A program made the translations under genes and the position numbers. A stretch of 63,493 nucleotides of DNA, counting the filler. It is 3 parts of 3 records of this genome, joined end to end, with 100 filler letters (N's around TTAATTAATTAA, not from the genome) between each part and the next. Parts side by side here need not be neighbours in the genome. Positions count along the whole stretch, not along the records: positions 1 to 15,721 come from SRR31156797_4461; 2 more parts are not named here. One strand, 5' to 3'. A model generated the notes under the pieces. The model saw only the letters and a list, made by a program, of their open reading frames with translations, was not told where the DNA came from and made no database searches. This document shows, in pieces, positions 1 through 28,283 of the stretch (position 1 is the stretch's first letter; every line of letters starts with the position of its first letter).

Positions 1-1
1 G

Positions 2-898
2 GTAACCATTTATTCCGGCACCGAGTTTGGCCGCACACTGGGTACGCCCATCATGCTGCTTGTGCATAATAAAGATCAGCGGCCGCAAGATTATGGTGAG
101 ATGAGTAAGATCCCCAGGCCGTCTCATGCCGATTTTACCTATCAGCTTAAGTACGGAACCAGGGCCTCAAGTGGTGGTGGTCGTTCCAGTGCCAGAGAGA
201 CCATCGGTCGAGTTGCTGCTGGTGCGATTGCTGAAAAGTGGCTTCGGGAATCTTACGGGACAGAAATTATAGCCTGGGTTAGTTCTGTTGGCGATATAGA
301 AGCCCCTGAAATAGACCATGCAGCAATTAGTCGCAGCGAGGTAGATTCTACCATTATTCGGTGTCCGCATGCAGAGACAGCAGCCAAAATGGAGCAGAGG
401 GTTTCGGAAATACTTGAAGCTAAAGACTCCACTGGTGGTATCCTTACCTGTGTTTGCCGGAATGTTCCCATTGGTTTGGGAGAACCTATTTTTGATAAAC
501 TGGAAGCACGACTGGCTCAAGCCATGCTGTCCCTGCCTGCAACCAAAGGGTTTGACATCGGCAGCGGGTTTGCGGGCACTCAAATGCGCGGTAGTCAGCA
601 TAATGACCCTTTTGTACAAAAAGGGAAGAAGTTGGGGACTGTTACTAATAATTCCGGTGGCGTTCAGGGAGGGATCAGTAATGGTGAGCCTGTCATCTTT
701 CGGGTGGCTTTTAAGCCGGTGGCAACGATAGGCATGATGCAGGATACCGTTGATTTTGAAGGTAAAAGGGTTACTTTGGAAGCAAAGGGGCGTCACGACC
801 CATGTGTAGTTCCAAGAGCAGTGCCCATTGTTGAGTCCATGGCAGCTTTGGTTTTAATGGACATGGCCTTGCAGCAGCGATCCAGAGGAAATTTGTAA
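2..898 (+). CDS. aroC: Chorismate synthase (5' end outside window)
   Basis: The frame is open from nt 2 ([18 protein letters not shown]). It contains the signature motifs [23 protein letters not shown] and RHDPC. Confidence 0.97.
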
Positions 899-942
899 CC
901 AGTAGGAAGTTTTTTGTCCTACTCCTTCAACGATACACATCT

Positions 943-2007
943 ATGGATACATTGAAAGGACATATTCTGGTTGTAGAAGACTCCAAGGTCAATCAGAAGT
1001 TGCTGCAAAGGCTTTTGGTGAAAAGTGGTTACGAGGTGGCTTTGGCAGGAGACTCCAACGAGGCGTTGGCAATTCTTCAGGCAAAGGGTAGGGTACCGCC
1101 GGACTTAATTTTACTTGATATCATCATGCCGGGGATGGATGGCTTTGAGCTGTGTAAACGGCTCAAACAGGATGCATTTTTTCAGGATATCCCTGTTATT
1201 TTTATTTCTTCTCTGGATGCAGCTGACGATAAGGTGCGAGGATTTGAAGCGGGGGGGGTTGATTACATTACCAAACCATTTCACTTCGGGGAAGTTTTGG
1301 CAAGAATTTCCACCCATCTTAAGCTCTGCCGCCTTCAGCGGCAGGTGGAGGAAAGAAACAAACAACTGCATCTTGAAAAACAAAAGTCAGAATCTCTCCT
1401 GCTCAATGTGCTGCCAGCTCGGGTAGCTCAGGAACTGATTGAGAAGGGTAGCTTTAGGCCGCAGTCCTACACAGATGTAACTGTTTGTTTCATAGATCTC
1501 GTTCAGTTCACTGCTGCATCATCCCTCTTGGATCCCGAGATTTTAATCCGAGAGCTTAATGATATTTTTTCCGGTTTTGACGATATCGCCTGCAGGCATG
1601 GGTGTGAACGAATGAAGACTGTTGGCGATGCTTATCTTTGTACCTGCGGAATACCTAAAGCCGACCCTCTTCATGACCAGAAAATGGCAGATGCGGCCTT
1701 AGCAATGATTGCCTTTCTTGAGCAGCGAAATCTCCATGCAGATCATCAGTGGCAGGTGCGGATTGGGATACATTCTGGTAATGTTGTCGGGGGGATAGTG
1801 GGTATCGATAAATACCTGTATGATATTTTTGGAGATACGGTAAATATCGCCTCCCGTTTAGAATCATTATCCTTGCCCATGCAGATAAATGTTTCGCAAG
1901 AAGTCTATGATAGCCTTGAGGACGATTTTTGTTTTACTGGCCCGGCTATGGTTGAAATGAAAGGCAAAGGCGCTCGCTCGACCTATTTTCTTACCGGCCG
2001 TCAGTAA
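943..2007 (+). CDS. Response regulator (REC) fused to class III adenylate cyclase
   Basis: N-terminal REC domain (VVEDS, LLDIIMP, YITKP), then a coiled coil, then cyclase motifs FIDLVQFT, KTVGDAY and YDIFGDTVNIASRLE. The K and D specificity residues suggest ATP as substrate. Confidence 0.92.
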   Translation: MDTLKGHILVVEDSKVNQKLLQRLLVKSGYEVALAGDSNEALAILQAKGRVPPDLILLDIIMPGMDGFELCKRLKQDAFFQDIPVIFISSLDAADDKVRGFEAGGVDYITKPFHFGEVLARISTHLKLCRLQRQVEERNKQLHLEKQKSESLLLNVLPARVAQELIEKGSFRPQSYTDVTVCFIDLVQFTAASSLLDPEILIRELNDIFSGFDDIACRHGCERMKTVGDAYLCTCGIPKADPLHDQKMADAALAMIAFLEQRNLHADHQWQVRIGIHSGNVVGGIVGIDKYLYDIFGDTVNIASRLESLSLPMQINVSQEVYDSLEDDFCFTGPAMVEMKGKGARSTYFLTGRQ

Positions 2008-2053
2008 GACGATTGATGAGCTTCATCTTATTTCCCTCCTTGTGTATGTCTGT

Positions 2054-2377
2054 CTACAGTAATAATCCTGCAAGCCAGTAGAGCAACATTCCCGCAATGA
2101 CAGTACCTCCCAAACTTTTTGTTTTCCAGGCAATAAGAAAAGTGGGGACTGCAATCAGCAGTTCAGGCTGGGTGATATCCAGGGTGCGTGGCTCCGTATG
2201 GGTGAGGAGAATAGGGGCCAGAAGTGCACTGAGGATAGCCACAGGAATCAGACTGAGCCAGTCAATCAGCCACTGGGGAAGACGTCTATGGGCTAGGTAA
2301 AGGAGCGGGAGCCATCGTGGTACATAGGTAACCAAGCCCATGGCGGCAAAGAGTAGAAAATATTCAGGAAGGTGCAT
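2054..2377 (-). CDS. azlD: AzlD-family branched-chain amino acid exporter small subunit
   Basis: Hydrophobic 107-aa protein with MGLVTYVPRWLP and IPVAILSAL motifs. It overlaps the azlC stop. Start taken at the ATG at 2377. Confidence 0.88.
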   Translation of the reverse strand: MHLPEYFLLFAAMGLVTYVPRWLPLLYLAHRRLPQWLIDWLSLIPVAILSALLAPILLTHTEPRTLDITQPELLIAVPTFLIAWKTKSLGGTVIAGMLLYWLAGLLL

Positions 2378-3101
2378 GACTGCCTCTCGTCCTTTTTTTG
2401 ATGAGGAAACCAATGGTTGCTGCACTCATGGAGGCACCTACAATATAAGAGTCTCCTGGAATAAACAGGTACCAGCCTACAGAAATTGCAGCAGCAATAC
2501 ATGCTGTGGCAACAAAAATGATGCCCTGCATTTGATAAACAAGCAGACAGATAAACATCGCGGTTAATGCGTAATCAATGCCAAAGGCTCCTTGGGGAAT
2601 AAACTGGCCAATCACTGTTCCAGTTATGGTGGAGATAATCCAGACCGAGTTTGCCAAGTGATGTACTGAGAGTGCGCTCCATTTGCTCCAGTCACTATTG
2701 TTAAACCGGGTCATGTTTACGGCAAAACTTTCGTCAGTGATGCCGTAGGCAAAGACGGAAAGAAACCAGCGGTTGACGCCTTGAAGATGGACTGCCAGGG
2801 CTGAACTCATCAAGGCATGGCGAAGATTGACAACAAAGGTGGTAAGGATGATTGAAGTGACAGAAGCGCCGCTGGCAAGCATGGCAACGCAGATAAATTG
2901 GGCGCTACCGGCAAAAACAAGGATGGACATCATCCCGACCGCCCATACGGGTATTTTTGCCTGCTGGGCAAGAACGCCCAGAGCCAGACCTATTGGAAAG
3001 TAACCCAGACAGATAGGCCAGGCTGCACCAAAACCTTTGCGCACTTTATTTTGCAGAGGAGTGTGCAGGGTTGGCTGATGTTGAAGGTTGTCGTTCTTCA
3101 T
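2364..3101 (-). CDS. azlC: AzlC-family branched-chain amino acid exporter permease
   Basis: Motifs PICLGYFPIG, FAGSAQF, NLRHALMS and GITDESF. Confidence 0.93.
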   Translation of the reverse strand: MKNDNLQHQPTLHTPLQNKVRKGFGAAWPICLGYFPIGLALGVLAQQAKIPVWAVGMMSILVFAGSAQFICVAMLASGASVTSIILTTFVVNLRHALMSSALAVHLQGVNRWFLSVFAYGITDESFAVNMTRFNNSDWSKWSALSVHHLANSVWIISTITGTVIGQFIPQGAFGIDYALTAMFICLLVYQMQGIIFVATACIAAAISVGWYLFIPGDSYIVGASMSAATIGFLIKKRTRGSHAPS

Positions 3102-3271
3102 GAATTTAGATATGTATGCCTAGTATTTATGAGTTTAAAGAAAAACCCACGTTCTACCTGCTATGAATTGTAAAAAATACTCGTTTAGTAAAGGGAATGT
3201 TCTATACAAATTAGTACGCTCTCGCAATTGTTTTTCAGTGTCGTTGTTGTGGCGAAAAAGAGCATGCTGCC

Positions 3272-4864
3272 ATGAGTAACGTGCGCTGGAAGATCCGTGA
3301 TATTCTTGATCTGGAGTTTTTTCTTCACCAAGACAGAAAACGTGCTGATAGTGAAGGAGAGGCACCGCTGGTGCAGCGTGACCGCACTCTTTATACCGAA
3401 AAAATTATTCCGCAGTCTGGGGCTAATCCTGAACGGCGTTTGCTGGTAAGGAAGTGGCTGCAGCTAAGGAGGAAGGCTGTACAGGTAGACGGCGATGAGC
3501 AGATTCTACCCGGTAAAATATGGCAGGATGTTTTTTTTGGGGCCAAGGTGATCGCTTTAGGCATCGGGCTGCTCAGTGGCATCAGTATGACCATCCCCTT
3601 TTTAGTTTATTCGGGGCAGGCTCCGGTTAATGTAACCGGATATTTTGCGGTCTTTGTCCTGTTGCAGCTATTTTTGTTTACTGGACAATTGTTTTCCCTG
3701 TGCTGGCGAAAGCTTAGAAAACGTCAGCTGGCAGCCTCGTTATTGGGGATGCTGCTGGGCAGGTTGAGTTTTTTGTTAATGGGTAAGCTGCTGCAATTTG
3801 TTTACCGAAAACGTTCTGCTGCGGCGCAGAGAGCTCTCGATCTATTTCGTAACCAGATTAAGGAGCAGGCATCTTTGGCTCCGTTTTTTCTCTGGTCGGT
3901 TTTTTTACTGCTACAGCTTGCAGGGATAGGCTTTAATTGTGGTGTCATCGGGGCAACTCTAGGTAAGGTTTTTGTTGCTGATACCGCCTTTGGCTGGCAA
4001 TCAACATTGCAGGTGCAGGAAATCGTTATTGCTGAGGCGGTTCGATGGGTTGCATTGCCGTGGAGCTGGCTGCTGCCCGAATATTTCGCCTATCCCACTC
4101 TTGAGGCAATCGAAGGAAGCAGGATAGTGCTCAAAGACGGAATGTACAGCCTGACGACCATGGATCTTGTTTCCTGGTGGCCCTTTTTGTGTTGTTCAGT
4201 TTTGTTTTACGGTCTGTTTCCCCGTGTGGTTATGATGTTTTTTGGGGTTTTTTCCAGGAGTAGTCTCTTGCGAAAGGTTCCGTCCACAGAAGAGCCAGAG
4301 TTGCGTTGTCTGGTACGACGAATGGTAACCCCGACAGTGGAAACCGCAGGAGATAGCAGGCACACCACAAAGATAAGAGAACCGTCAGTTAGCCTGGAGA
4401 GTGAAGAGGAGAAAGAGACTCAACCTGTAGAGGTTGCGGGGGCGGAAGTCACCTGGCTGCTGATACCCGATGAACTGCATGACATTTTACCACTTGGCCG
4501 GCTGACATCATTTCTTGCTGGTGATGGTGCTAATCGAGTAGTGGACATCATACGTTTTGACGATCTGGATAACAATGATGAACAACTCCTTGGACTGCTT
4601 GCAGAGAAAGCAAAGACAAAGGAGATTGCTGGTATCACTTTGCTGCAGGAAGCATGGCAGCCACCCATTGAGGAAATATTATCTATGATTCGCGATATTC
4701 GACAAGCAGTAGGCGCAGAAACGGAGATCGTGATTGGCCTGATTGGTAAGCCTGAGGCCGATGAAGTGCTTACCCCAGCAGATAAAGAACAACTCGCCAT
4801 TTGGGCGATGAAAATAAGACCACTTGCTGATCCTGCTTTAGCAGTCATATCACTGATGCGATGA
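3272..4864 (+). CDS. DUF2868-like multi-pass membrane protein
   Basis: Several TM segments, FGWQSTL and WWPFL..YGLFPR motifs, C-terminal AWQPP. Translationally coupled (ATGA) to the downstream GTPase. Confidence 0.75.
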   Translation: MSNVRWKIRDILDLEFFLHQDRKRADSEGEAPLVQRDRTLYTEKIIPQSGANPERRLLVRKWLQLRRKAVQVDGDEQILPGKIWQDVFFGAKVIALGIGLLSGISMTIPFLVYSGQAPVNVTGYFAVFVLLQLFLFTGQLFSLCWRKLRKRQLAASLLGMLLGRLSFLLMGKLLQFVYRKRSAAAQRALDLFRNQIKEQASLAPFFLWSVFLLLQLAGIGFNCGVIGATLGKVFVADTAFGWQSTLQVQEIVIAEAVRWVALPWSWLLPEYFAYPTLEAIEGSRIVLKDGMYSLTTMDLVSWWPFLCCSVLFYGLFPRVVMMFFGVFSRSSLLRKVPSTEEPELRCLVRRMVTPTVETAGDSRHTTKIREPSVSLESEEEKETQPVEVAGAEVTWLLIPDELHDILPLGRLTSFLAGDGANRVVDIIRFDDLDNNDEQLLGLLAEKAKTKEIAGITLLQEAWQPPIEEILSMIRDIRQAVGAETEIVIGLIGKPEADEVLTPADKEQLAIWAMKIRPLADPALAVISLMR

Positions 4865-6288
4865 AAAAAATAAACCATATTCCTGAATTTGCCATCATCG
4901 GGCACCCGAATGAAGGTAAGTCGTCCGTGCTTTCCACCCTGGCAGAAGATGATTCGGTGCGTGTTAGCCCCATTCCTGGGGAAACCGTTACTTGCCAGAA
5001 TTTTCCTGTAATGGTGGATGGACGTGAGATAATTCGTTTTGTCGATACGCCAGGGTTTCAAAACCCTCGCAAAACGCTGCAGTGGATGCAGGGCTGGCAG
5101 GGACAAGATGAACAGATGATAGCCTCCTTTATCGAGGTTCATGCCGATGATCCTGCATTCCGAGATGATTGTGAGTTGCTGGGACCTGTTGCCGGCGGAG
5201 CAGGCGTTATTTTTGTGGTTGATGGCTCCCGGCCGGTGCGTAATATGGATCGTGCTGAAATGGAAATCCTTCGGCTCAGTGGGGCTCCAAGGATGGCTGT
5301 TATAAACAGTAAGGAAGACGACACTGCTTACCTCAGCCAGTGGCAATCTGAGTTTCGCAAACACTTTAATGCCATCCGTGTTTTTAATTCCAGCAGAGCC
5401 ACTTACATTCAGCGGATTGAGCTGTTGGAAAGCCTTAAAGCAATTGATCAGCAGTGGGAACCTGCCCTGCGTGGGGTGGTCGAGGCATTTAAAACTGACT
5501 GGCAGGCACGGAGCGAACAGAGTGTCGACATCTTGCTTGGCTTTATCGGCGAAGCATTGGCGTATCGTAAAACCGTTCCCTGTGAAAAAGAAAATCAGCA
5601 GGATGTGTGTCGCCAAATGTGGCAGGAATACCAGGCAATGGTAACCCACAAAGAGCACCGAGCCCATAAGGCTATCCGGAGCTTATTCAAACATAATATT
5701 TTCAATATTGATTTGCCTGAGCATTCAATCCTGGAAAAAGATCTTTTCAGCAAGACGACCTGGGAGTTTCTCGGCTTAACCGACAAGCAGATTATTCTGG
5801 CAGGAGCAATGAGCGGGGCTGCCCTCGGGGCTGGTTTGGATCTGGCAGCGGCCGGTATTTCGTTTGGTGTTTTCTCTACCCTTGGAGGGTTGTTTGGGGC
5901 AGCAGGAACAGCAGTTAAGGGAAAAAAATGGCTCTCTGGAATCAAATTGCTTGGTATGCATATTGGAGGCGAACAACTGCGTATAGGTCCTGTCACTAAT
6001 AGCCAGTTACTCTATATTCTTCTGGATAGAAGCCTGCTGTTCTATGGGCATATTATCAACTGGTCCCATGGCAGGCGCGATTATGATGCTGGCCAGCAAG
6101 AGGTTGCTGCAGATACCAGGAAGGAAGGAGTTACTGCATACTGGAGCAAAAATGAGCGGAAAATAGGTGAGCATTTTTTTCGTGCTGCCATTGCAGGTAG
6201 TGGCTGGGCAACCTCTGAAGCTGCACAGAAAATGCGTGATTTACTGCTCCAGCAGATGCAGCAGATTGCAGAAAGCAACAGTAAATGA
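4861..6288 (+). CDS. GTPase with C-terminal DUF3482-like domain
   Basis: G1 GHPNEGKS, G2 GETV and G3 DTPG motifs. A C-terminal Gly/Ala-rich membrane hairpin (GAMSGAALGAGLDLAAAG) is followed by SHGRRD. Confidence 0.82.
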   Translation: MKKINHIPEFAIIGHPNEGKSSVLSTLAEDDSVRVSPIPGETVTCQNFPVMVDGREIIRFVDTPGFQNPRKTLQWMQGWQGQDEQMIASFIEVHADDPAFRDDCELLGPVAGGAGVIFVVDGSRPVRNMDRAEMEILRLSGAPRMAVINSKEDDTAYLSQWQSEFRKHFNAIRVFNSSRATYIQRIELLESLKAIDQQWEPALRGVVEAFKTDWQARSEQSVDILLGFIGEALAYRKTVPCEKENQQDVCRQMWQEYQAMVTHKEHRAHKAIRSLFKHNIFNIDLPEHSILEKDLFSKTTWEFLGLTDKQIILAGAMSGAALGAGLDLAAAGISFGVFSTLGGLFGAAGTAVKGKKWLSGIKLLGMHIGGEQLRIGPVTNSQLLYILLDRSLLFYGHIINWSHGRRDYDAGQQEVAADTRKEGVTAYWSKNERKIGEHFFRAAIAGSGWATSEAAQKMRDLLLQQMQQIAESNSK

Positions 6289-6345
6289 GGTAGTATATTT
6301 ACGGGTTACTTCCCTGTTTACGACAATGCCTTACCGCTGGCTCAA

Positions 6346-7119
6346 TTAACCCCCAAAAGCTTTTTCTGTCAGTGTCTCTTCTGTGTTTTGGTCCAGTTCA
6401 CCCGTTTCGGTTAAGCCTGACTGTACCTGGAATTGTATGATCGCAGAACGTGTTCGGCGGCCCCGCAAGCCGTCAGTCGGTCCTGGGTCAAAACCAAGAT
6501 ATTTCAGTGCTGCCTGACCTGCACGAAGGGAAAGGTCAGGGAGTATGATCTTGTATTTTGCATGGGCTGCTGCCAATCTGGTGTCATATTCATTTTTCTT
6601 AAAGTCTCGGCCGTTATAGCCGCGTGCAAAAGATACCCAATTGTTACGTTGCAGTGCACCTGCAAGGCTATTTCCTTTAATAAAATTTGCCATAGCCAGC
6701 AGTTGTTTGTTTTCACTTTTGACCATCCCCTGCACCAAGGCTTTGACTGTAGAAAACCCTGCAATATCATGGTTGAAGCCCATGACTTGACCGATACCCC
6801 AGGAGGCACTTTTTAGCGCAGCGTCCTGGTCCAATTTAATCGCTTTTTTTAAACGGTCGTATTCTCCTGAACCACCTTGGTAGCCGCCTGGCTTTTTGTG
6901 GCTGATATCTGCATTCCCGTCATCATAAAGCCCGTTTGTCTGTCGATGAAAAATGTGGCGTTCGAAGAGTATTTGTGGGGTTCGGTCATGGAAAAAACCG
7001 AACCCGCGAGTCTCTACAGTCAGTATCGCCCATATTTCGCATTCAGAAACACCCAACGTGCTGCATACTTTATCCATTCCATCATCGCCTAAAGGTTTAC
7101 CTTTGCTTTTAAACTTCAT
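6346..7119 (-). CDS. N-acetylmuramidase (DUF3380-type) with C-terminal PG_binding_1 domain
   Basis: Motifs VETRGFG, ILFERHIF, SASWGIGQVMGFN and FARGYNG. C-terminal LKYLGFDPGPTDGLRGRRTRSAIIQFQ..GL..TG is a peptidoglycan-binding repeat. GGAGA RBS before the ATGs at 7125/7119. No signal peptide. Confidence 0.9.
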   Translation of the reverse strand: MKFKSKGKPLGDDGMDKVCSTLGVSECEIWAILTVETRGFGFFHDRTPQILFERHIFHRQTNGLYDDGNADISHKKPGGYQGGSGEYDRLKKAIKLDQDAALKSASWGIGQVMGFNHDIAGFSTVKALVQGMVKSENKQLLAMANFIKGNSLAGALQRNNWVSFARGYNGRDFKKNEYDTRLAAAHAKYKIILPDLSLRAGQAALKYLGFDPGPTDGLRGRRTRSAIIQFQVQSGLTETGELDQNTEETLTEKAFGG

Positions 7120-7199
7120 AATCATTTCTCCACAAAGATGAGAGGGGGGGAACGTACTCATTACATCTTCTTCAGGAATGAAACTTAATTTCGTAAGAA

Positions 7200-8036
7200 T
7201 TAATCGGTCACGACTGTCAGGCCGGTCGGGGGATCGTTATGTTCTATGCCATCTTGGTTTCCTCGAGGTTGAACTGATTCGTGGACTTTATCAGTCGTCT
7301 CAATCTTGCGCATAGGGTCAGGTACGGGGTCTAAATTTTTTGAGATTGACGCTCCAGGATCCCGCATTTCTTTAAATCGTTCGAGTTCATCAGCCGCTAT
7401 CGGGAGTCCACAGGCAATTGCTCTATGCATCATCCAGCACAGGGCAATAGTGGAAAGGCCAATACTCATCCCTCCTCCGACATCTGAATGTACCCCACGA
7501 AACCAAACCTCTTCGAGTCGTCCTTCAGTTGTTTCTCCTGCCTTTAATGGTTTAACTCTGGTTGGTTTAAAGTTACCTCTTCGTTCATCCAAAGCCATGG
7601 CATGGCAGCATTGTTCCACGCTTCCAGGCAGCTTGAGGTCCCACCCGATATTTATATCATTTCCTGGAATCCCAAAAGACGCGACCACATCCCATAGGCC
7701 CAGAAAACGGACTTGTGCATCTGGTACTTCTGTGGCAGCTTCGTTCGCAAAATGCAGTGCTAAAGCAGCACCACGGCTAAAACCTATGATGTCGACTGTT
7801 TTGTCTCCATTCTCAACGTTTTTTTCCAGTTCGTCCATGGCTTCATTGATACGGAACCATCCGCCGGCCCCGGCCAGGCCTCCGAGAATTTTGCCTATAA
7901 AACTCAGGCGAGTACCCACGCCTTCAAGGTAAAATTTAGGTCCTTGGAAGGCATTATAAAATTTAATGACGTTTGTATCTTTTCCTTCCCCTTTTTCGTC
8001 TTCATTCCACGTACCATCAAATGCATAGAGTGCCAT
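7200..8036 (-). CDS. DUF2235 / Tle1-family alpha/beta-hydrolase (phospholipase-like)
   Basis: Motifs FDGTWN, TNV, GVGT, GFSRGA (GxSxG), LGLWDVV, HAMALDERR and EVWFRGVHSDVGGG. No signal peptide. Confidence 0.9.
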   Translation of the reverse strand: MALYAFDGTWNEDEKGEGKDTNVIKFYNAFQGPKFYLEGVGTRLSFIGKILGGLAGAGGWFRINEAMDELEKNVENGDKTVDIIGFSRGAALALHFANEAATEVPDAQVRFLGLWDVVASFGIPGNDINIGWDLKLPGSVEQCCHAMALDERRGNFKPTRVKPLKAGETTEGRLEEVWFRGVHSDVGGGMSIGLSTIALCWMMHRAIACGLPIAADELERFKEMRDPGASISKNLDPVPDPMRKIETTDKVHESVQPRGNQDGIEHNDPPTGLTVVTD

Positions 8037-8108
8037 CGATTTATCCCCCAATGTACTTATTGTTGATGCTCAACTGTATGGAGCTTCTGCCAAAATATGC
8101 TCTGTAAT

Positions 8109-8144
8109 AAAAAAAACCGAATTGCCCTCTTAAAGGCAACCTGG
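8109..8144 (-). terminator. Intrinsic terminator forming the riboswitch expression platform
   Basis: The minus strand reads CCAGGTTGCCT-TTAAGA-GGGCAATTCGG-TTTTTTTT. The 5' arm is the 3' end of the aptamer. Confidence 0.8.
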
Positions 8145-8210
8145 CTTTCTTGAAAAGATCCTAGGCTTTCCGACCCTACCTCACGGCAGGTTTGGCTTTC
8201 TCTGTCTCTT
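8130..8210 (-). ncRNA. Cyclic-di-GMP-I (GEMM-I) riboswitch aptamer
   Basis: The minus strand reads GAAAGCCAAACC-UGCC-GUGA-GGUA-GGGUCGGAAAGC-CUAGG-AUCUUUUCAAGAAAGC-CAGG-UUGCC. This fits the GEMM consensus: CAAACC, P2 with a GNRA loop, GGGaCGsAAAGC, P3, and a 3' RCC. Confidence 0.88.
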
Positions 8211-8227
8211 ATTTGGTTTATATTGAC

Positions 8228-8256
8228 ATGTTATGTTGCTAAGTGGGGGGAGTCAA
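8228..8256 (-). promoter_or_regulatory. Sigma70-type promoter for the riboswitch leader
   Basis: TTGACT (8256-8251), a 17-nt spacer, then TAACAT (8233-8228), immediately upstream of the aptamer. Confidence 0.65.
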
Positions 8257-8486
8257 GTCAGTGAGGCCGTTTTTGTAGCTGAAATAACGGGGAAAAGTAA
8301 TGGTTTTCCGTAAAGGGATTTAGTCATTGCCGGGGATGGGGATTCATTGCTTTACTGGTAGAATGCAATAGAACGACCTCTTGATGCCTTATTGAATGCG
8401 GCAAGGTCGTTCTATGCAGATTGTACAGTTAGTTTTGCATTGGGATTGTTTATCCTGGATTTGATATGGCAGGATGAACTGTAATT

Positions 8487-9755
8487 TCAGGTGCTTTTGG
8501 GGGCCGCCGTATCTGGTGGCGAGTTAGGGTTGGGCTTTATTTTGGGGGATCTATCGACTTGTAACCCGATCGCTTTTGCACGTTTCTCCCATTGTTTCCG
8601 CGCCAAAGCTTGCATGTCTTCTACCTTATCTGTCTCGTCTACAATTTCCATACCAAGCAGTGTTTCTACAATATCCTCAAGCGTCACCAGACCTTTCGTG
8701 CCACCGTATTCGTCAACAACAAGAGCAATATGCTGTCGATGATCGAGAAAAGATTCCAGCAGTTCCGATAACGGCATCTGACCGGAAACCGTCATGAGGT
8801 CACGCCTCAAGGTCGCAAGTTTTTTTTCTGTTTGCTCCTGTGCATTTGATATCAACATGTCCGTTTTTAGAATAAACCCCGTAATATCATCAAGACCCTT
8901 TCCGTACACTGGCAGGCGAGAGAATGAAGTGTGCGACTGTAAGTTCAGAGCTTCTGCAACGGTCATATCCTGTTGGAGCGAAACAATCACCGTACTTGGT
9001 GTCATAATATCTTTTGCTTCTATTGACTCAAATCGGAAGAGATTACGAATAATTCCTGATTCACGTTCTCTTAGCTGGCCGGCTTGTTCCCCTATCTCCG
9101 CCATAGCAATAAACTCTTTTCGGCTAAAAACATGCAGGCTTTTCCCGCGAGCAATCAGTTTGGTTAATTTTTCTGAAACCCAGATCAAAGGGAGAAGGGT
9201 GAAAATCAGACTGCGCACAAAAAACGCGGTGGGTCCTACGAGCTTTCGCCAGTAAACGGCGCCTAATGTCTTGGGTATAATTTCGGAGAGAAAGAGAATC
9301 AACAAGGTCATGATTGCCGAAAAGAGTCCGAACCAGGTGCTGCCGAATACGATCGTAGCCTTTGCACCGGAACCTATCGCGCCGACCGTATGGGCGATGG
9401 TATTCAAGGTGAGGATAGCCGCAAGTGATTGGTCAACATCCTCCTGCTTTAATCGTTTTAAAAGCGCCGCAAGTTTAGGCCGGTCTTGTTGCAATCCAGC
9501 AATATAAGAGGGTGTAATGCTCAAAAGGACAGCTTCTGCCACAGAACAAAGAAAGGAAAAAACGAGCGCCATCAGAATGTATGTTACTAATAGTACAACA
9601 TCAGTATGCGTATATTCAGTACCTGAGGCTGGAGTACTTTCCGTACCTAGCGCGAATACTGTACTGGCTGTAATGAAAAACAACCCGAAGACGACTGACC
9701 AACGGAACCGATTACGTGTTAATTTCATCCTTGCTATCCTTATGTCTACGTTCAA
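8487..9755 (-). CDS. CNNM/DUF21 + CBS-pair protein (CorB/HlyC-like Mg2+ homeostasis)
   Basis: Motifs SFLCSVAEAVLLS, LTLNTIAHTVG, SEIIPKTLG, FSRLPVY and VVDEYGGTKGLVTLEDIVE. Exact start uncertain. Confidence 0.9.
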   Translation of the reverse strand: MNVDIRIARMKLTRNRFRWSVVFGLFFITASTVFALGTESTPASGTEYTHTDVVLLVTYILMALVFSFLCSVAEAVLLSITPSYIAGLQQDRPKLAALLKRLKQEDVDQSLAAILTLNTIAHTVGAIGSGAKATIVFGSTWFGLFSAIMTLLILFLSEIIPKTLGAVYWRKLVGPTAFFVRSLIFTLLPLIWVSEKLTKLIARGKSLHVFSRKEFIAMAEIGEQAGQLRERESGIIRNLFRFESIEAKDIMTPSTVIVSLQQDMTVAEALNLQSHTSFSRLPVYGKGLDDITGFILKTDMLISNAQEQTEKKLATLRRDLMTVSGQMPLSELLESFLDHRQHIALVVDEYGGTKGLVTLEDIVETLLGMEIVDETDKVEDMQALARKQWEKRAKAIGLQVDRSPKIKPNPNSPPDTAAPKST

Positions 9756-9837
9756 AATTTTCTATTGACCATGGTGGAGTCGGTGTGCTTCTATACGGTG
9801 AGCATTGAATTCTTTCTTTTATATGAGGTACTATACC

Positions 9838-9999
9838 ATGCAAGAAGATAAGATAATCACCGTTTCCTGCCCCAAATGCGGCTCCAAAATTACGGAAAAG
9901 CTCAGCTACTTTCAAACACCTGGAAAATCCTGTACCGCTTGCTGCCGACCTTTCTCCTCAACCCGGTTTAAAATGGCCATTGAAAAGGCATTGGAGTAG
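9838..9999 (+). CDS. Small zinc-ribbon protein
   Basis: 53 aa with CPKCG and CTAC motifs. GAGG RBS upstream of the ATG at 9838. Confidence 0.6.
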   Translation: MQEDKIITVSCPKCGSKITEKLSYFQTPGKSCTACCRPFSSTRFKMAIEKALE

Positions 10000-10274
10000 T
10001 TGTCGCTAAGGGCGAGGAGCGCAGGCGGTAACGATGCTGGCTATTATGTGGCTGATCCTTTTCGGTCAGATGTTAATGTAATTCACATTTAGAGTCATAA
10101 ATAATCCTTGCAGCCTTGCTGAATACTTTACGGGAACAAACCGTAACCTGATTGTTAGGTGTACAAAGTGGATTTGATATTTTAACCTAACTTCAGTGGC
10201 ACTCGTCTGTCCTCGAATAGGGCAGATATTCTGTTCTTGAATAATTTGGTGTTCAGACTCCGTGGGACGATATT

Positions 10275-11603
10275 TCATTTTTCGTTATCTATATTGTCAA
10301 ATATATCACCCTGGAAAAGTGGCTCTTTCAAGGCTACAATAGCTTTTGCTGGCGGTGGTGGTCGAAACAGGTGGCCAGTTATCATACCTCTTGTTGTTCC
10401 AAAAGCAGCAACTGTCCACGCTCCAAGCAGCCCTATGTAGTAGAGAATACTTGTCCATTCAAACAGCGGTAATCCTGTGTGGTTTGCCAACTGCGCTATA
10501 CCGGTTACGCAAGTGCCGACTGGAAATGTAAATGCCCAATAAGTAAGGGCAAATTTCATTTGTCTATAGTGCGCTCGAATTGATAACAGTATTGCCATAC
10601 AGGTCCAGAGCAGCACAAAACCCAGAACAGGGACACCATAAAGTACTGCAAATACCTCAAATCCAGATGCTATTTCGGAAGGTACTGCACCCTTTGAAAC
10701 GGTACCAAGTATACCTGCAGCTGTCATTGACTGCCCAAGCGGCCCCAGTACAATCCAAAGGGTAGGGACACGGGAAGTACCTGATGTTCCATGATGAGCC
10801 AAACGGCTCCATATCATACAAATAATAATCATTACGGCTATCAGGCTAAGGCCAAACATGGAGAAACAGAGGTAGAACATTGTTTCTCTCTGTACACCTT
10901 CCGGGGCATACGGTACAAGCATAGCGCCTGTGGCAGCTGATACCATAGGAGGAACAACCGGCATGAGCCAACCACCAAAGGCAGAGTCCGGCCGGACCCT
11001 GAATTTGGTAAACAGGCGATAAGGAATAACAAGAGCCGAACCAAGCCCGGCAAAGGTGCCTAAAAACCAAAGGCCCCAGGCAATGTTCAGGGCAGCTTGA
11101 TGGCCGAGCACACTTTCTCCAACTAATAACGTCCCCCCGGCTACTGTGAGCATAGCCATAGGTGGTGCTCCATAGAACTGGGCCATCATAGGGTCTCTAA
11201 AGTGCTTGCTCCAAACACTATGCCCAGTAACCAGGAGAACGAATGTCCACGTGACCAGTCCGATCAACATGATGGAGGCAAGGCACCAAGTTATCAGGGC
11301 GAAAGAGTGGAGCCTATCTGAAAATAGAGGTAAAGAAGCAGCAGCATTTGCTATAATGCCAGTTCCCATAACCGAAGCAAACCAGTTGGGGCCTAACTCA
11401 TAATCATCGTTAGCCCCGGTGACTGAATAAAGGAAGCGTTTCCACCAGAATCCTTTTGAACTTGCATTTTTGAGTTCATCGTCCAATTTTACCATCCTGT
11501 ATTGGGTATATGGTTTAAAAAGACCTCTCCTGCGTTCTGCATCCAAGTCTATTATATACTGGTTCATCTTATATCTCATAAAATGAAGACAGAAGCTCCC
11601 CAA
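10275..11603 (-). CDS. TDT/SLAC1-family (TehA/Mae1-like) transporter
   Basis: Motifs GPNWFASVMGTG, WLMPVVPPMVSA, LGPLGQS and YWAFTFPVG, with about 10 TM segments. The true start may lie slightly downstream. Confidence 0.88.
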   Translation of the reverse strand: MGSFCLHFMRYKMNQYIIDLDAERRRGLFKPYTQYRMVKLDDELKNASSKGFWWKRFLYSVTGANDDYELGPNWFASVMGTGIIANAAASLPLFSDRLHSFALITWCLASIMLIGLVTWTFVLLVTGHSVWSKHFRDPMMAQFYGAPPMAMLTVAGGTLLVGESVLGHQAALNIAWGLWFLGTFAGLGSALVIPYRLFTKFRVRPDSAFGGWLMPVVPPMVSAATGAMLVPYAPEGVQRETMFYLCFSMFGLSLIAVMIIICMIWSRLAHHGTSGTSRVPTLWIVLGPLGQSMTAAGILGTVSKGAVPSEIASGFEVFAVLYGVPVLGFVLLWTCMAILLSIRAHYRQMKFALTYWAFTFPVGTCVTGIAQLANHTGLPLFEWTSILYYIGLLGAWTVAAFGTTRGMITGHLFRPPPPAKAIVALKEPLFQGDIFDNIDNEK

Positions 11604-11756
11604 AAAATAAAACTACCCTCGTGAATTTTCACTGTATTGCGGCCAGATCAGTATAATTTATTTGAGTTTTACCATATTGACTTTGGCCGTCCCGTGCTCT
11701 TGTGATAGCATCTTTAGTATCAGGGACTAATTGTCTCAACATTGATGGGAGCATAT

Positions 11757-11933
11757 ATGCAAGATGGAACCGTAAAGAAGAGAGTTAACATTTCGGAAAA
11801 TCGACTGTATTTATAGGCTTGTGACTGTTTTGGGAAAAAGCAGGCTAAGAGTCTTTATACTGATGGAAGGTTAGCTATTGTTGATCTGAAGCCTGGTTTT
11901 GATGTCTTAATGATCTTTCTACATGCACAATAA
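11757..11933 (+). pseudogene. Short interrupted ORF remnant
   Basis: GGGAG RBS then ATG. Reads MQDGTVKKRVNISENRLYL*ACDCFGKKQAKSLYTDGRLAIVDLKPGFDVLMIFLHAQ, with an in-frame TAG at 11814-11816. The NRLY...LKPGFDV pattern recalls small STAS/SEC14-like proteins (recollection only). Confidence 0.35.
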
Positions 11934-12021
11934 CGGTGCGCTTGCCGGCAGCCAACGTTAAACAAAATGAAAAATTGCTTGATAGTCTATCTGGAGCTGG
12001 TCAGGCACAAATAAGGAATAT

Positions 12022-12783
12022 ATGATGAAATGGTATCATCGGGAGAGTGCCTTGGGAGACATAAATGATAGGATGAGCAGAATGAATAGGGGCGTGCTTG
12101 TGCTTGCCCTTACCCTTTTGCTTCTCTCCCCATGCTCCTTTGCTGCTGACGAGCCTTTCCCTTGGCGGACATTCATACCAGCAATTATCGGACAAGAAAA
12201 AACTGACCAACCTGCTCAATCGGTTACTATTCTGCCAACATATACATTGCAAATGAATGATTATGGCGTCCTCCTTATTGTTGGCGAGGTCTATAATAAC
12301 ACGAGTTCACCCATACGGTTTACACAGGTAACTGCCGATGTCCTTAACGACCAAGATGTCGTTGCCACAGATTGGACTTACGTGATCAGGGAAATTGTTA
12401 TGCCTAAAACAAAGTCCTGCTTTAGGATGCACTCAGGGTATCGTGGTGACTATACTAAGGTGAGGTTTGGACCTGTATTGTTTGATAAAACAGTCGAAAG
12501 ACTTCAAGATTTTACTTTGAGCGGGGTTACCCTGTCTTCAGATGAATCTGGCGACTTTAAACTAACTGGGCTTGCTAAGAACACAACCAGCAGTTCAACA
12601 TCTTTTACCAGTGTTATCGGAACAATCTACGACCAAAATGGGCAAGTAATCGACTGCGATTATACATATTTAAATAACCATACACTGGCTCCACAGGAGT
12701 CGAGTTCTTTTGAAATGCTGACGTCAACCCCGGCAAGTTCGGTTTTCAGCTACCAGCTTCAAACAGATTACAAAGACGATTAA
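12022..12783 (+). CDS. Exported protein with two tandem FxLYD-like domains
   Basis: Signal-like segment (VLVLALTLLLLSPCSFA) followed by two G-x-x-x-N...(I/L)YD..G.V...F repeats. Confidence 0.7.
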   Translation: MMKWYHRESALGDINDRMSRMNRGVLVLALTLLLLSPCSFAADEPFPWRTFIPAIIGQEKTDQPAQSVTILPTYTLQMNDYGVLLIVGEVYNNTSSPIRFTQVTADVLNDQDVVATDWTYVIREIVMPKTKSCFRMHSGYRGDYTKVRFGPVLFDKTVERLQDFTLSGVTLSSDESGDFKLTGLAKNTTSSSTSFTSVIGTIYDQNGQVIDCDYTYLNNHTLAPQESSSFEMLTSTPASSVFSYQLQTDYKDD

Positions 12784-12806
12784 CCCCTGGCAGTTCCCTG
12801 TCTTCC

Positions 12807-12838
12807 CCAAAGCCCACGGCACCCGCTGTGGGCTTTGG
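12807..12838 (+). terminator. Stem-loop downstream of the FxLYD gene
   Basis: CCAAAGCCCACGGC-ACCC-GCTGTGGGCTTTGG forms a 14-bp stem. The U-tract is weak. Confidence 0.55.
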
Positions 12839-12942
12839 CCTGCCATATCAGGAAGAAAATCAAAGTACGATTTGAAATTTTCCCTAGTATTCTTTAACGT
12901 TTATCCTTTGTGTCCAGTGTGTGTCCCTTTTTTTATAAGAAT

Positions 12943-13325
12943 TTATGGCTTGAGCCGGCCAATTCCGGTCACCCTAATCAGATGCCCAGAATCATCATAT
13001 TGTAATGAGGATGACCACATTACACTTCGTACCTCGCCAGTTTGCTTATTTATCTGAGGATCCACTATATGCATAATCTTCTTTTATTCTGCAATGCCTT
13101 TGCTGAACCATTGTATTGTTCGTTCAGCATCATCAAAATGGACAAATTCGAAGACTTGTATACCCATACACTTTCAGGGCTGAGTTCCAGTATTGTTTTT
13201 GCCACGTGGTTTAAAAATAGAAACTTACCCTCTACATCTTTTATTGTGATAAGGTCATGTGTTCCTTCAATAACCTCCCTGTATTTTTCTTTACTCTGTG
13301 ATAAGCCTTTTGTCCTTTTCTGAGC
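12943..13325 (-). pseudogene. PAS-PAC domain remnant (one frameshift, one stop)
   Basis: The minus strand reads AQKRTKGLSQSKEKYREVIEGTHDLITIKDVEGKFLFLNHVAKTILELSPE, then after a frameshift CMGIQVFEFVHFDDAERTIQWFSKGIAE*KKIMHIVDPQINKQTGEVRSVMWSSSLQYDDSGHLIRVTGIGR. Not in the ORF track. Confidence 0.75.
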
Positions 13326-13570
13326 GGTTTCCTCCGGGATGTGTTTTGCATGAACAGTTTGGGTAAAAAAAACGCACTTCCAGCTGGAATAAAGATAAAA
13401 ACAGGAACGCTCAAAAAAAGATGAAGTGATTTATAGAAATGCTCGATTACAGACAGTGGTAGAAGTTGTTCGAATAGAAGCCGAATCGTTTGCAGTGAAA
13501 TTTATAGATATTAACGGGGGGGAAGGAAAAAAGAATGTGGGCACAACTTAAACAGGAGCTGAATCGGTAA
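13326..13570 (+). pseudogene. Possible PilZ-domain C-terminal remnant
   Basis: Pieces in shifting frames: VSSGMCFA*, then DEVIYRNARLQTVVEVVRIEAESFAVKFIDING, then MWAQLKQELNR*. VVR...F(A/G)VKF is typical of PilZ C-termini. Confidence 0.35.
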
Positions 13571-13735
13571 AGCTATTTCAGAACCTCTATAAAGAAAGCC
13601 CATCGACACCAATAAGTAATTTTTTCGTCTTTATTTCGCCTGGTGGGGAAGTAATTCGGTAATGGCCATAGAGAGCAGGCGTACACAGCTTGTACTTTAC
13701 TGGTTACTATAAACCCTATTCTCATTATACAGTGC

Positions 13736-15453
13736 ATGTTCTTTTTTAATGAAATTAATATAAAAAAAACGATTCTTATCTGCTCGCTCACTCTGGTCGC
13801 TTTACTGAGTAGTATTTTTTTGCGCTCTATGTAACTGAAAAATATCTGGTTTTTGAAAAAGAGATGCCGCTCATAGAGCAGGATTTCCTTCAACAACAGC
13901 AGCAACTGCTTAAAAGTATAGTTGATCTCCAAGTTCAGCAGATTGATTTCCGTCGAGACCATATTTATTCCCTTCTGCGGGAAACGCTTGTAAATCGAGT
14001 TCATGAAGCACAAGCTATTGCGGAAAATCTCTATGAAACGAGCAAAGTTGACCATGAGTTGGAACATATTGGCCTGATGATCCGGGAAGCCCTTCGCCCT
14101 ATTCGCTTTGACAATCATCAAGGGTATTTTTTTGCACATTCGATGGAAGGTGTGATCCAGCTTTATCCTCCAGATCGAAGCTATGAAAATCACAATATAA
14201 GTGTTTTAGGTCCGCAACCTTTTGCAATATTTCAAAGAATGAGCAAACTGATCCGTGAAAAAGGCGAAGGTTTTATTGACTATAACTGGCCACTGCCAGG
14301 TGGACCTGGAAAAGGGCATGAAAAAAAGTTGAGCTATATCGCTGCAGTTGAACCTCTTAACTGGTTTATTGGCTCTGGGCACTGCCTTGCTGATTTTGTT
14401 TCGATGACTAAACAGAAAATTATCGATGACATAAATAACAACATAGGCGCTAACCCACTCAACTATTTTTTTGTTTATCAACTCCACAATATTGAAGGGG
14501 GAAAAAATTTTGCTACGATGCTGATAAATCCCAACCGCCCGGATCTTATAGGTAAGTCACTTTCAGACGATTATAAAGATGCACGTGGCAAGAAATTCCG
14601 TAAAGAGTTTCTCCAAGGGCTAAGGCAGAATGGAGAGGCATTTGTTACCTACTGGTATAAAAAACCAGGTATGGTGAAACCTAAGAAAAAAATTAGTTTT
14701 TTTAAACTGTACCCTGAGTGGAATTGGGTTATTGCCAAAGGTACATACCTTGACGATCTTGACGGCATCATTGCCAGCAAAAAAACAGAATTTGAGTATC
14801 AGGTCAAAAAGCAATTAATCGTTTTCACCATCCTTTTCATGGTGTCCGTTGTTGTTATCCTCGTGGTCGCTCACTATTTTGCCAGGGGCATTAATGCGAT
14901 TCTTGATGACTATAAAAGAACTCAAAAAAATCAGCAGGAAAAGCTTGAACAAGCCAACAGTGTACTACATAAACAGGCCACTACTGATAATCTCACGGGT
15001 CTGTATAATCGCCAGTTTTTTAACGAACTATTAAGCAAAGAAATCGCACGTTCCGAGCGCTATCATTCGCCCCTCTCACTCATTATATTTGATATTGATC
15101 GCTTTAAACTGATTAACGATACATTGGGACACCTTAACGGCGACAAAGTCCTTCAGGAACTGGCCATTCTCATTGGTAACCATGTTCGGAAATCAGAGCT
15201 ATTGGCTCGATGGGGCGGGGAGGAGTTTATTCTGCTTGTTCCTGAAAATGACCAGGAGCAGACAACTGTTATTGCAAGAAAAATTTGTACACTTGTATCT
15301 TCATATGATTTTTCTATTGATCGCGTAGTGACCTGCAGTTTCGGTGTCACCCAATTTCGGACCGACGAATCTGCCGGTGATTTTATCAACAGAGCCGACC
15401 AAGCCCTCTACAGCGCCAAGGGAGCGGGGAGAAATACTGTCAAAACCTTGTAA
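13736..15453 (+). CDS. Cache-Cache-TM-GGDEF diguanylate cyclase, frameshifted near the 5' end
   Basis: ORF 13864-15453 has two single-Cache-like domains (GEGFIDYNW, GEAFVTYWYKKP), one TM, TDNLTGLYNR and RWGGEEF. The missing first TM (MFFFNEINIKKTILICSLTLVALLSSIF) starts at ATG 13736 in another frame and joins if the T7 run at 13815-13821 is T8. Confidence 0.88.
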
Positions 15454-15647
15454 TGGCTAACCGTGTTTGATTGAACGAAAAGAAAGGAAAGGGTCGGCCA
15501 GCTTGATTGTAATTCAGAATTAACGACTCATGTATCGAGAAGACAGTAGTGTTATTTTCACAGGCTTGAAATCAGTTTAGCCGGTGGGTACTAACTATTC
15601 ACCTTCTTTGGTGTAGAGCCAAATCGTCTAAAATTACTTGCAGAAAT

Positions 15648-15683
15648 AAAAAAGGGTTAACTCGTGTTGAGTTAACCCTTTTT
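15648..15683 (-). terminator. Bidirectional intrinsic terminator after tRNA-Ala
   Basis: AAAAAAGGGTTAACTC-GTGTT-GAGTTAACCCTTTTT. Confidence 0.85.
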
Positions 15684-15691
15684 CATATACT

Positions 15692-15721
15692 TGGTGGAGC
15701 TATGCGGGATCGAACCGCAGA
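15692..15721 (-). tRNA. tRNA-Ala, 3' part only (T-arm, acceptor stem, CCA), truncated by contig end
   Basis: The reverse complement TCTGCGGTTCGATCCCGCATAGCTCCACCA is the classic bacterial tRNA-Ala 3' end. The anticodon is not visible. Confidence 0.88.
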
Positions 15722-18507: not shown

Positions 18508-18517
18508 CTCACCTTAC

Positions 18518-20409: not shown

Positions 20410-20411
20410 AC

Positions 20412-22956: not shown

Positions 22957-22965
22957 TTTTGACCT

Positions 22966-25135: not shown

Positions 25136-25148
25136 CTCTTACCCCTTA

Positions 25149-25994: not shown

Positions 25995-25995
25995 T

Positions 25996-28280: not shown

Positions 28281-28283
28281 AAT

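Follow-up and report, generated by a model that had tools for sequence, protein, structure and literature searches.

A predicted ON-type c-di-GMP-I riboswitch precedes a minimal DUF2235 lipase and an endolysin-type muramidase in a small Desulfobulbaceae-like clade

We analysed a locus on the minus strand of a 63,493-nucleotide (nt) stretch of DNA from a sulfate-reducer-like genome, composed of three joined parts (the window, meaning that whole stretch), the locus lying in part 1 (positions 1–15,721, SRR31156797_4461). An aptamer of the c-di-GMP-I (cyclic diguanosine monophosphate), or GEMM-I, riboswitch class precedes two genes there, which code for a short DUF2235/Tle1-like lipase and for a DUF3380 muramidase with a peptidoglycan (PG)-binding domain. 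The pair adds a new regulated cargo to a riboswitch class already known, is found in a clade that is small as far as seen, and is possibly a new kind of holin-free lysis unit. We tentatively propose, with a confidence that stops a little short of calling it probable, that the operon, gated by c-di-GMP, serves to breach the envelope of the producing cell from inside, that is, self-lysis. A sequence-only reading of the same DNA had placed promoter, aptamer, terminator, lipase and muramidase in this order on the minus strand, and all five were found in that order:

8228–8256, minus strand: sigma-70-like promoter candidate (TTGACT-17-TAACAT, 9 of 12 positions matched, pattern scan)
8132–8206, minus strand: c-di-GMP-I (GEMM-I) aptamer (RF01051), with helices P1a, P1b with the GNRA loop GUGA, and a short P2
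8109–8151, minus strand: predicted intrinsic terminator (core hairpin 8141–8120, extended stem 8151–8110, U8 run 8116–8109)
7200–8036, minus strand: DUF2235/Tle1-like alpha/beta-hydrolase core, 278 residues (PF09994; S87 in GFSRG, D116, H183)
6346–7119, minus strand: DUF3380 N-acetylmuramidase, 257 residues from the probable start M15 (PF11860 and C-terminal PF01471; reading frame open from 7161)
about 6550–7035, minus strand: muramidase catalytic domain
about 6373–6525, minus strand: muramidase PG-binding domain

The aptamer and its overlapping terminator

The covariance model RF01051 matches positions 8132–8206 (−) over its full length (model 1–87) with a score of 52.6 bits (cut-off 35; E 2e-07), which bears out the GEMM-I assignment made from the letters alone, and RF01051 is the sole Rfam family at gathering score in the 63.5-kb window. 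Three orthologous leaders, described below, score 51.3, 50.7 and 47.0 bits. The window's aptamer was aligned with 11 others from the genomes of two relatives (alignment A3), giving three orthologous rows (the window and loci L001 and L099) and nine paralogues. When the Rfam two-helix architecture is laid over these 12 aptamers, 94% of the cells are paired and 8 of the 18 pairs have changed on both sides. None of 500 shuffles reached the observed values on four of five measures, two of 500 did so for further pair types, and slid-partner controls dropped pairing to 25–49%. The two-helix structure is supported by this covariation, the pair variation stemming mostly from the paralogues and not from the four orthologues.

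A G at model position 11 and an AGCC block are invariant in all 12 aptamers. By our own mapping, position 11 would be the equivalent of G20 in the Vibrio cholerae riboswitch Vc2 and the AGCC block would hold that of C92; the window's aptamer thus appears to share with Vc2 the G and the C at these positions, besides the full-length RF01051 match. These two Vc2 bases are reported to read the two guanines of c-di-GMP, G20 as Hoogsteen partner of G-alpha and C92 as Watson–Crick partner of G-beta, and sensors of cyclic GMP–AMP (cGAMP) are reported to carry A in place of G20 (PMC6140456). Because G is kept at the G20-equivalent position, the expected ligand is c-di-GMP and not cGAMP. Sensing of cGAMP in the manner of cyclic-oligonucleotide-based antiphage signalling systems (CBASS) was set aside, the specificity position being G and not A.

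P2 is very short compared with Vc2 and with the pilM riboswitch discussed below, with 3 nt in place of the 14-nt insert of the model, and differs from both in containing two mismatches. These non-pairs (columns 45–76 and 48–71) are common to the three orthologous rows of A3 and absent in the nine paralogues, and the orthologous group scores lowest among the full-length aptamers of the lineage (47–52.6 vs 52–78 bits). The two mismatches may represent a high-threshold setting.

Pattern scans of the 3-kb region performed at chance level, with six promoter-like sites against 4.1±1.9 expected and four terminator-like sites against 3.8±2.0, so that both elements rest on their position, their context and their conservation in the orthologues. 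The sigma-70 promoter that had been proposed is present as a candidate (TTGACT-17-TAACAT, 8256–8228, −) of a kind not enriched in the region. Its −35 block CTGACTTGACT is invariant in the four orthologous leaders, in which the −10 element reads TAACAT or TAAAAT; this conservation tells little because the leaders are 87% identical overall. The terminator core found by the pattern scan is a 9-pair hairpin (8141–8120, −) followed by eight U, and in the minimum-free-energy fold of 8230–8100 the stem extends over 8151–8110 (−35.6 kcal/mol, z −2.73, 3 of 200 shuffles equal or better). It overlaps the aptamer by 20 nt (8132–8151), and the whole P2 3′ strand, all ten nt, falls within its 5′ arm, which agrees with the proposal that the aptamer's 3′ strand doubles as the terminator's 5′ arm.

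In all four orthologues, the minimum-free-energy fold of the full leader has the terminator formed and P2 broken, and the part of the leader 5′ of the terminator's 3′ arm folds as P1b and P2. Since terminator and aptamer P2 are mutually exclusive, ligand binding should permit read-through; the transcriptional ON logic suggested earlier thus appears well founded structurally in these folding models. The leader resembles the experimentally studied ON-type GEMM-Ib pilM riboswitch of Geobacter metallireducens, for which mutually exclusive aptamer and terminator folds are reported, with the terminator sequestering the ligand-pairing C (PMC9262584). The likeness lies in a terminator that excludes the aptamer fold, whereas the expected ligand of the window's switch is c-di-GMP, not cGAMP.

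The regulated genes are new for GEMM-I riboswitches as far as our literature searches reach. No published account was found in them of a c-di-GMP riboswitch with DUF2235/Tle1 or with muramidase/endolysin genes, which agrees with the sequence-only reading, to which the arrangement was not known as described; such genes might stand as hypothetical in the supplementary tables of early GEMM papers. An aptamer within the lysis module of a phage of Clostridioides difficile was reportedly noted in the paper that first described c-di-GMP riboswitches.

The lipase and muramidase proteins

The first gene (8036–7200, −) is an open reading frame (ORF) of 278 residues that matches PF09994 (T6SS_Tle1-like_cat, E 8e-39). 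Across 20 aligned family members, D116 and H183 never vary and 19 have S87 (GFSRG), and the GxSxG, WD and HSDxGGG motifs align with those of Tle1 from enteroaggregative Escherichia coli (EAEC; 6sjl). We take Ser, Asp and His to be the triad residues of Tle1; the catalytic residues are retained and the protein is apparently an active hydrolase. Its sequence is marginally similar to those of Tle1 proteins with solved structures (E about 1e-6). An AlphaFold2 model (predicted local distance difference test score 79, predicted template-modelling score 0.84) has as its best Foldseek matches Tle1 (4o5p), TleB (9j3f), Tle1 (6sjl/6ski) and lpg2422 (4m0m), all spanning the core alone, with TM scores of about 0.5 normalised to the query and 0.22–0.27 normalised to the targets. 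Judged by this model, the lipase consists of the catalytic core alone and has none of the additional domains found in the 520–780-residue effectors of type VI secretion systems (T6SSs). It shares PF09994, the motifs and the best structural matches with the Tle1 effectors (Pseudomonas aeruginosa PA3290, 4o5p; EAEC Tle1, 6sjl; TleB, 9j3f), whereas it differs from them in length, in having no spike-binding or membrane-anchoring accessory domains, and in lacking T6SS genes nearby, TssC and PAAR in two relatives, and an immunity gene. The earlier label of a Tle1 T6SS lipase therefore stands at the level of domain and motifs and fails as a description of a T6SS effector, the protein being a bare 278-residue core from a widespread stand-alone family.

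That family counts 5526 proteins at E ≤ 1e-3, the best 120 of which are 276–325 residues long and 58–88% identical to the window's lipase; sources of homologues include Nitrospira, Parabeggiatoa and Syntrophaceae. The Protein Atlas gives the lipase just the DUF2235 label, NCBIfam has no match for it, and the PADLOC defence profiles match neither it nor the muramidase. Among the matches listed, the DUF2235 literature is by title largely about T6SSs and toxin systems, the exceptions being Pectobacterium comparative genomics, a Xanthomonas machine-learning study and Trichoderma dual RNA-seq.

The second ORF (7161–6346, −) matches PF11860 (Muramidase, E 4e-57) and, at its C-terminus, PF01471 (PG_binding_1, E 4e-12), as expected of the DUF3380 muramidase with PG-binding domain that had been read from the sequence. 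A GGAG lies 8 nt upstream of an ATG at 7119 (M15) and the closest database homologues have 257–258 residues, so that translation probably starts at M15. The protein matches the PHROG endolysin phrog_1224 (E 2e-73) and aligns over about 180 residues with the phage endolysins 7q4s (E 8e-42), 7rum and 5nm7 of the Protein Data Bank (E 8e-42 to 5e-30). Its E50 (ORF numbering) aligns with Glu101 of AP3gp15, an Ala mutant of which is reported to lose 99.4% of activity (PMC5674055); the catalytic Glu is retained and the enzyme is apparently active. Catalytic domain, catalytic Glu and PG_binding_1 module are shared with the DUF3380 endolysins of phages (Burkholderia phage AP3 gp15, 5nm7; 7q4s; 7rum; Salmonella phage 10 Gp110), whereas the PG-binding module is C-terminal in the window's protein and N-terminal in AP3gp15 and 7rum, and the window's gene lies outside a phage and has no holin or spanin. 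NCBIfam returned sub-threshold PG-binding matches only.

Homologues 66–89% identical, nearly all of 255–260 residues among the matches listed, come from Pseudomonas, Thiovibrio, Binatia and many metagenomes. All 826 matching phage records fall below 60% identity (best full-length 36–37%), and viral contigs yielded no close relative; on these grounds a phage origin of the muramidase was rejected. Plasmid records hold stand-alone copies only, at no more than 49% identity, the gene being alone on two chromid/plasmid records. None of 401 genomes sampled from another class gave a muramidase match at E ≤ 1e-40. The Pseudomonas homologues are about 70% identical. The DUF3380 literature deals mostly with endolysins and phages among the matches listed and includes three T6SS papers: one names a predicted DUF3380 T6SS effector type (PMC5361080), and another only cites the DUF3380 paper (PMC10100999).

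Signal peptides and membrane segments are absent from both proteins, the maximum Kyte–Doolittle value of any 19-mer being 1.49 in the lipase and 1.12 in the muramidase, which confirms the lack of signal peptides noted from the sequence. In the window and at the two orthologous loci L001 and L004, the operon strand holds no ORF of at least 25 residues in which a 19-mer exceeds 1.6 in hydrophobicity, and thus no holin-like gene. A Pfam scan of the 50 window ORFs found no T6SS, extracellular contractile injection system (eCIS)/contractile-tail, phage, holin or immunity-type family, in keeping with the earlier statement that no immunity, holin, vgrG/PAAR or phage gene is adjacent. In particular, no Tli-type immunity gene adjoins the lipase: the muramidase is the unit's one other gene and the flanks are CNNM/CBS and DUF3482/DUF2868 genes. 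The operon differs from a phage lysis cassette in having neither an adjacent holin nor phage or prophage context. An 80-nt gap separates the two genes, and the pattern scan found no terminator-like site within it on the operon strand.

Relatives, genomic company and delivery systems

Relatives were sought by aligning the lipase family against one genome per species (185,579 species) and keeping the best 80 of 393 loci. Among these, the muramidase adjoins the lipase in two: L001, from a metagenome-assembled genome (MAG) of Desulfobulbus (G001; lipase 88% and muramidase 87% identical, aptamer 51.3 bits), and L004, from Desulfogranum marinum DSM 2058 (G002; lipase 81% and muramidase 83% identical). 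The D. marinum contig breaks within the lipase gene, and the other piece (L099) holds the aptamer (47.0 bits) and the first 64 lipase residues, 95% identical. A metagenome contig (L081) carries aptamer and lipase and then ends. The three-part synteny looked for in relatives thus recurs in close relatives only, namely the Desulfobulbus MAG, D. marinum and, for aptamer and lipase, one metagenome contig.

The operon's immediate upstream neighbour in the window is a gene for a CNNM/CBS membrane protein (8487–9755, −), and downstream, convergent to the operon, lies a DUF2868/DUF3482-GTPase pair (3272–6288, +). Relatives have the CNNM gene upstream (L119) and DUF3482/DUF2868 downstream as well; since the flanking genes are syntenic too, we regard this as one vertically inherited locus in a small Desulfobulbaceae-like clade. 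The DUF2868/DUF3482 pair was considered as an operon partner on account of a weak LeoA match and rejected, as it is absent from the other muramidase loci; it is kept as context. The DUF2868 membrane protein and DUF3482 GTPase, syntenic in G001 and G002, give weak LeoA/dynamin-like matches, and a link to membrane remodelling is possible.

Outside this clade the parts occur separately. At the Rfam gathering score, no cyclic-dinucleotide aptamer was found in 31 other lipase loci (34 scanned, including the orthologues L001, L004 and L081) or in eight other muramidase loci. A covariance model built from the 12 lineage aptamers, which is tuned to the short-P2 type and could miss other types, retrieved the same four instances only from a set of 98 sources made up of 86 lipase and 10 muramidase loci plus L099 and the window. 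Of 301 genomes that were sampled in the order, 10 have the muramidase, and eight of those copies are 41–53% identical and lie in unrelated contexts. Clustering of 398 lipase neighbours at 67 of the 80 loci, with 13 loci whose lipase gene was missed in ORF picking left out, showed no common neighbour, the largest cluster being present in 10 loci.

The catalytic core also occurs in longer proteins. RHS domains are present in 8 of 120 listed long homologues, and in all four RHS proteins checked the DUF2235 core is the extreme C-terminus, the position of the toxin; these cores are 40–45% identical to the window's lipase (P0001). One further long homologue is fused to a CHAT domain. The window's lipase is like the RHS toxins and the CHAT–DUF2235 fusion in its catalytic core, whereas it stands alone, with no delivery or sensor module. 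A neighbour scan covered 89 of 95 immediate (±1) neighbours of at least 90 residues at 65 short-lipase loci; three of the remaining six were annotated separately, and the scan left out L029:4869-5189, L030:4973-5293 and L074:11-352. In 15 of the 65 loci a ±1 neighbour has one of the following domain sets:

nSTAND1 and/or TIR_2 with FGE-sulfatase: L012, L020, L023, L025, L029
TPR-S: L014, L038
Patatin or Lipase_3 giants: L019, L024, L055, L038
CHAT: L030
DUF4231: L076
eCIS_core: L064
second Tle1-like gene: L006, L032

We take all these neighbour domains to be of conflict or cell-death type. In Nitrospira MAGs (L012, L020, L023, L025, L029 and others; BLAST cluster 1, 10 loci), the DUF2235 gene lies at most three genes from one for a protein of 730–940 residues that combines TIR_2 or DUF4062 with an nSTAND1 NTPase and an FGE-sulfatase domain. 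At L019 and L024 (Accumulibacter MAGs), L055 and L038, the short DUF2235 gene stands beside genes for Lipase_3 and/or patatin proteins of 920–1250 residues; the L038 neighbour has TPR-S too, and a TIR_2 gene lies on the other side of the lipase.

Two singletons join a short DUF2235 gene to another leaderless wall hydrolase: an Amidase_2 with an SH3-like tail just upstream of it in L003 and an Amidase_3 downstream in L073. Together with the muramidase of the window's clade, the lipase is accompanied by leaderless wall hydrolases of three unrelated folds, and we consider these three independent pairings among 87 loci suggestive, not decisive. In L003:3085-7288 (a Thermodesulfovibrionia MAG), one strand carries Amidase_2, DUF2235 and, after them, an M4 peptidase of thermolysin type that has a propeptide and a P-domain.

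T6SSs and eCISs had been suggested as features to look for in relatives, and the outcome was split. Neither TssC nor PAAR was found in either of the two relatives' genomes (G001 and G002, both fragmented assemblies); with no immunity gene and a lipase that appears to be a bare core, this makes the T6SS reading weak. Each genome has a phage-sheath match, annotation of which revealed an eCIS locus with sheath, gp19-type tube, T4_baseplate, Pvc16_N, AAA ATPase and eCIS_core, located on another contig than the operon. No Rfam aptamer match of G002 lies on its eCIS contig. Neither enzyme has an N-terminal extension: the lipase begins at the first strand of its core, and from residue 27 onwards the muramidase can be aligned with a free endolysin. 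The eCIS loci (L116, G002:C11:52000-71900; L117, G001:C267) also contain CIS_tube, and that of G002 has trypsin-like and caspase (Peptidase_C14) genes on its flanks and encodes, among others, a 1044-residue eCIS_core–LysM protein.

D. marinum has 10 RF01051 matches, nine of them outside the lipase operon (L088, L090, L092–L098, L118). The genes behind those nine encode a response-regulator/PAS protein, DUF6345, a metallo-beta-lactamase-like protein, the products of several ORFs without Pfam family, and two giant proteins whose genes share a contig, lie 6 kb from each other and neighbour an AbiGi gene. One giant has 1110 residues with leucine-rich repeats (LRR) and MopE, and the other has 1301 residues with a PGAP1-like alpha/beta-hydrolase, RCC1 repeats and Fib_succ_major.

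Envelope breach, its alternatives and the surrounding genes

In holin–endolysin cassettes, a leaderless endolysin needs a membrane lesion to reach the wall, and endolysin-driven explosive cell lysis occurs in Pseudomonas aeruginosa biofilms. c-di-GMP is the master signal of sessile life, and c-di-GMP-triggered lysis that feeds biofilm DNA is, to our knowledge, poorly understood outside a few model species. In the mechanism that we propose, a sigma-70-type promoter would drive the leader, and when no ligand is bound the terminator would win and transcription would end ahead of the genes. Bound c-di-GMP would lock P2 and block the terminator, and RNA polymerase would read through into a presumed common message for two cytoplasmic hydrolases, a minimal toxin-type DUF2235 serine lipase/esterase and a phage-endolysin-type N-acetylmuramidase. 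The lipase might then damage the cytoplasmic membrane from inside, replacing the missing holin, whereupon the muramidase could reach and cut the wall. The outcome would be lysis or envelope rupture at very high c-di-GMP, releasing DNA, vesicles and cell contents in the sessile state, with the two P2 mismatches keeping the switch tightly off until c-di-GMP is high. The likeness to explosive lysis and to holin–endolysin systems lies in the leaderless endolysin and the proposed release of DNA or vesicles in biofilm; the differences are that a lipase is proposed for the holin and that control is by a second-messenger riboswitch and not by a phage or SOS.

Several points weigh against self-lysis. 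Tle1-type lipases are reported to be toxic from the periplasm and not from the cytoplasm, and if such enzymes are toxic there only, a cytoplasmic DUF2235 protein need not breach the membrane. A self-lysis operon switched on by a biofilm signal would be costly unless, as we assume, it is limited to a subpopulation. With the lineage covariance model, 82 other DUF2235 loci and 10 other muramidase loci have no aptamer, and the muramidase, searched with the window query, is absent from all five other lipase-bearing genomes. As far as the sequences tell, both families are sporadic yet strongly conserved, mostly apart and without a riboswitch; since each is found mostly alone, each must also have a function independent of the other. 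Pairings of lipase and wall hydrolase amount to only three lineages among 87 loci, and the conflict-type neighbourhoods, most of which are those of Nitrospira MAGs, are not independent. An eCIS locus is present in both relatives, so that the enzymes might be delivered as cargo.

A bolder version of self-lysis, which we regard as speculative, would be a holin-free c-di-GMP suicide cassette: the weakened P2 would silence it until c-di-GMP is extreme, a subset of biofilm cells would burst, and short DUF2235 lipases would be general executioner enzymes of cell death, paired with differing wall hydrolases or with TIR, STAND or caspase-like sensors. It is doubtful, and somewhat more so, that the operon instead serves non-lethal envelope remodelling, in which limited cutting of wall and lipid at high c-di-GMP would yield outer-membrane vesicles, a sacculus loosened for matrix or appendages, or altered aggregation. 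The ON logic is tied to a sessile-state signal, PG_binding_1 points to intact sacculi as substrate, other D. marinum aptamers of the class stand ahead of genes for large surface-type proteins (LRR, RCC1/Fib_succ_major) and for an alpha/beta-hydrolase domain, and in Erwinia amylovora c-di-GMP is reported to act on autoaggregation via a putative peptidoglycan hydrolase (PMC7705223); a controlled sub-lethal dose to the wall is, however, hard to picture when neither protein has a route to the periplasm, and the lipase core is of toxin type.

We think it unlikely that the two enzymes are orphan cargo, weapons against other cells delivered by an eCIS or some other release, with c-di-GMP timing their production in a dense community. 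The eCIS loci of G001 and G002, the occurrence of DUF2235 and DUF3380 domains in T6SS effectors (for DUF3380, PMC5361080, where the type is named as predicted), the DUF2235 cores at the tips of RHS toxins and the eCIS_core protein beside the short DUF2235 gene of L064 would fit such a use; yet the operon lacks an immunity gene, G001 and G002 have neither TssC nor PAAR, the D. marinum eCIS contig lacks an Rfam aptamer match, and sequence conservation is much above that expected of diversifying effectors. Because operon and eCIS are on separate contigs in both relatives and neither protein has an N-terminal packaging or adaptor region, cargo is ranked below self-lysis. Less likely still is a role in unrelated cytoplasmic housekeeping, such as turnover of muropeptides or lipids, with an adjacency and riboswitch that are accidental in the lineage or a riboswitch that controls the first gene alone. 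Each family is mostly found alone, the muramidase has unremarkable contexts elsewhere (CorA, a methyl-accepting chemotaxis protein gene, transposases), and an internal promoter in the 80-nt gap is possible, but a PG-binding domain and an endolysin fold are ill-suited to soluble cytoplasmic substrates, leader and both genes are kept together in every checkable orthologue, and the lipase core has toxin-position fusions. Finally, it seems very improbable that this aptamer copy is decaying or does not respond and that a constitutive terminator holds the operon off: the low scores of the orthologous group and the two P2 mismatches absent in the paralogues would agree with decay, whereas the score is well above the Rfam cut-off, the mismatches recur in all three orthologous rows while the positions invariant across the 12 aptamers are kept, and the genes behind the aptamer are intact and conserved.

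If self-lysis is correct, the operon would provide a simple RNA-level route from c-di-GMP to a lipase and endolysin pair, and a first functional handle on widespread short DUF2235 proteins that have so far been named only after the T6SS. The same arrangement in the cultured strain D. marinum DSM 2058 makes the idea directly testable. Were the pair non-lytic, it would merely be one further gene association of a known riboswitch class in a small clade.

Elsewhere in the window, Pfam annotation shows regions dense in signalling genes at 943–2007, 13864–15453 and 16501–31755. They include a response-regulator adenylate/guanylate cyclase, a dCache–GGDEF diguanylate cyclase at a distance of 5.6 kb to the riboswitch, a complete che cluster that contains a SpoIIE phosphatase and SiaC, and an H-NOX gene that precedes one for a hybrid histidine kinase. 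In Vibrio, tfoX-like genes belong to the classic GEMM-associated ones; the window has a small TfoX_N protein (49086–49433, −), where no aptamer was detected with Rfam. Three large window proteins (33537–38438, 50016–52985 and 53323–54960) end in Por_Secre_tail, the C-terminal sorting domain of the type IX secretion system, which is unexpected given that the nearest relatives by the lipase and muramidase genes are Desulfobulbaceae. At 56650–57451 (−) lies an overlapping pair of nucleotidyltransferase (Polbeta/NTP_transf_2) and NTase_sub_bind genes, of a type often read as toxin–antitoxin.

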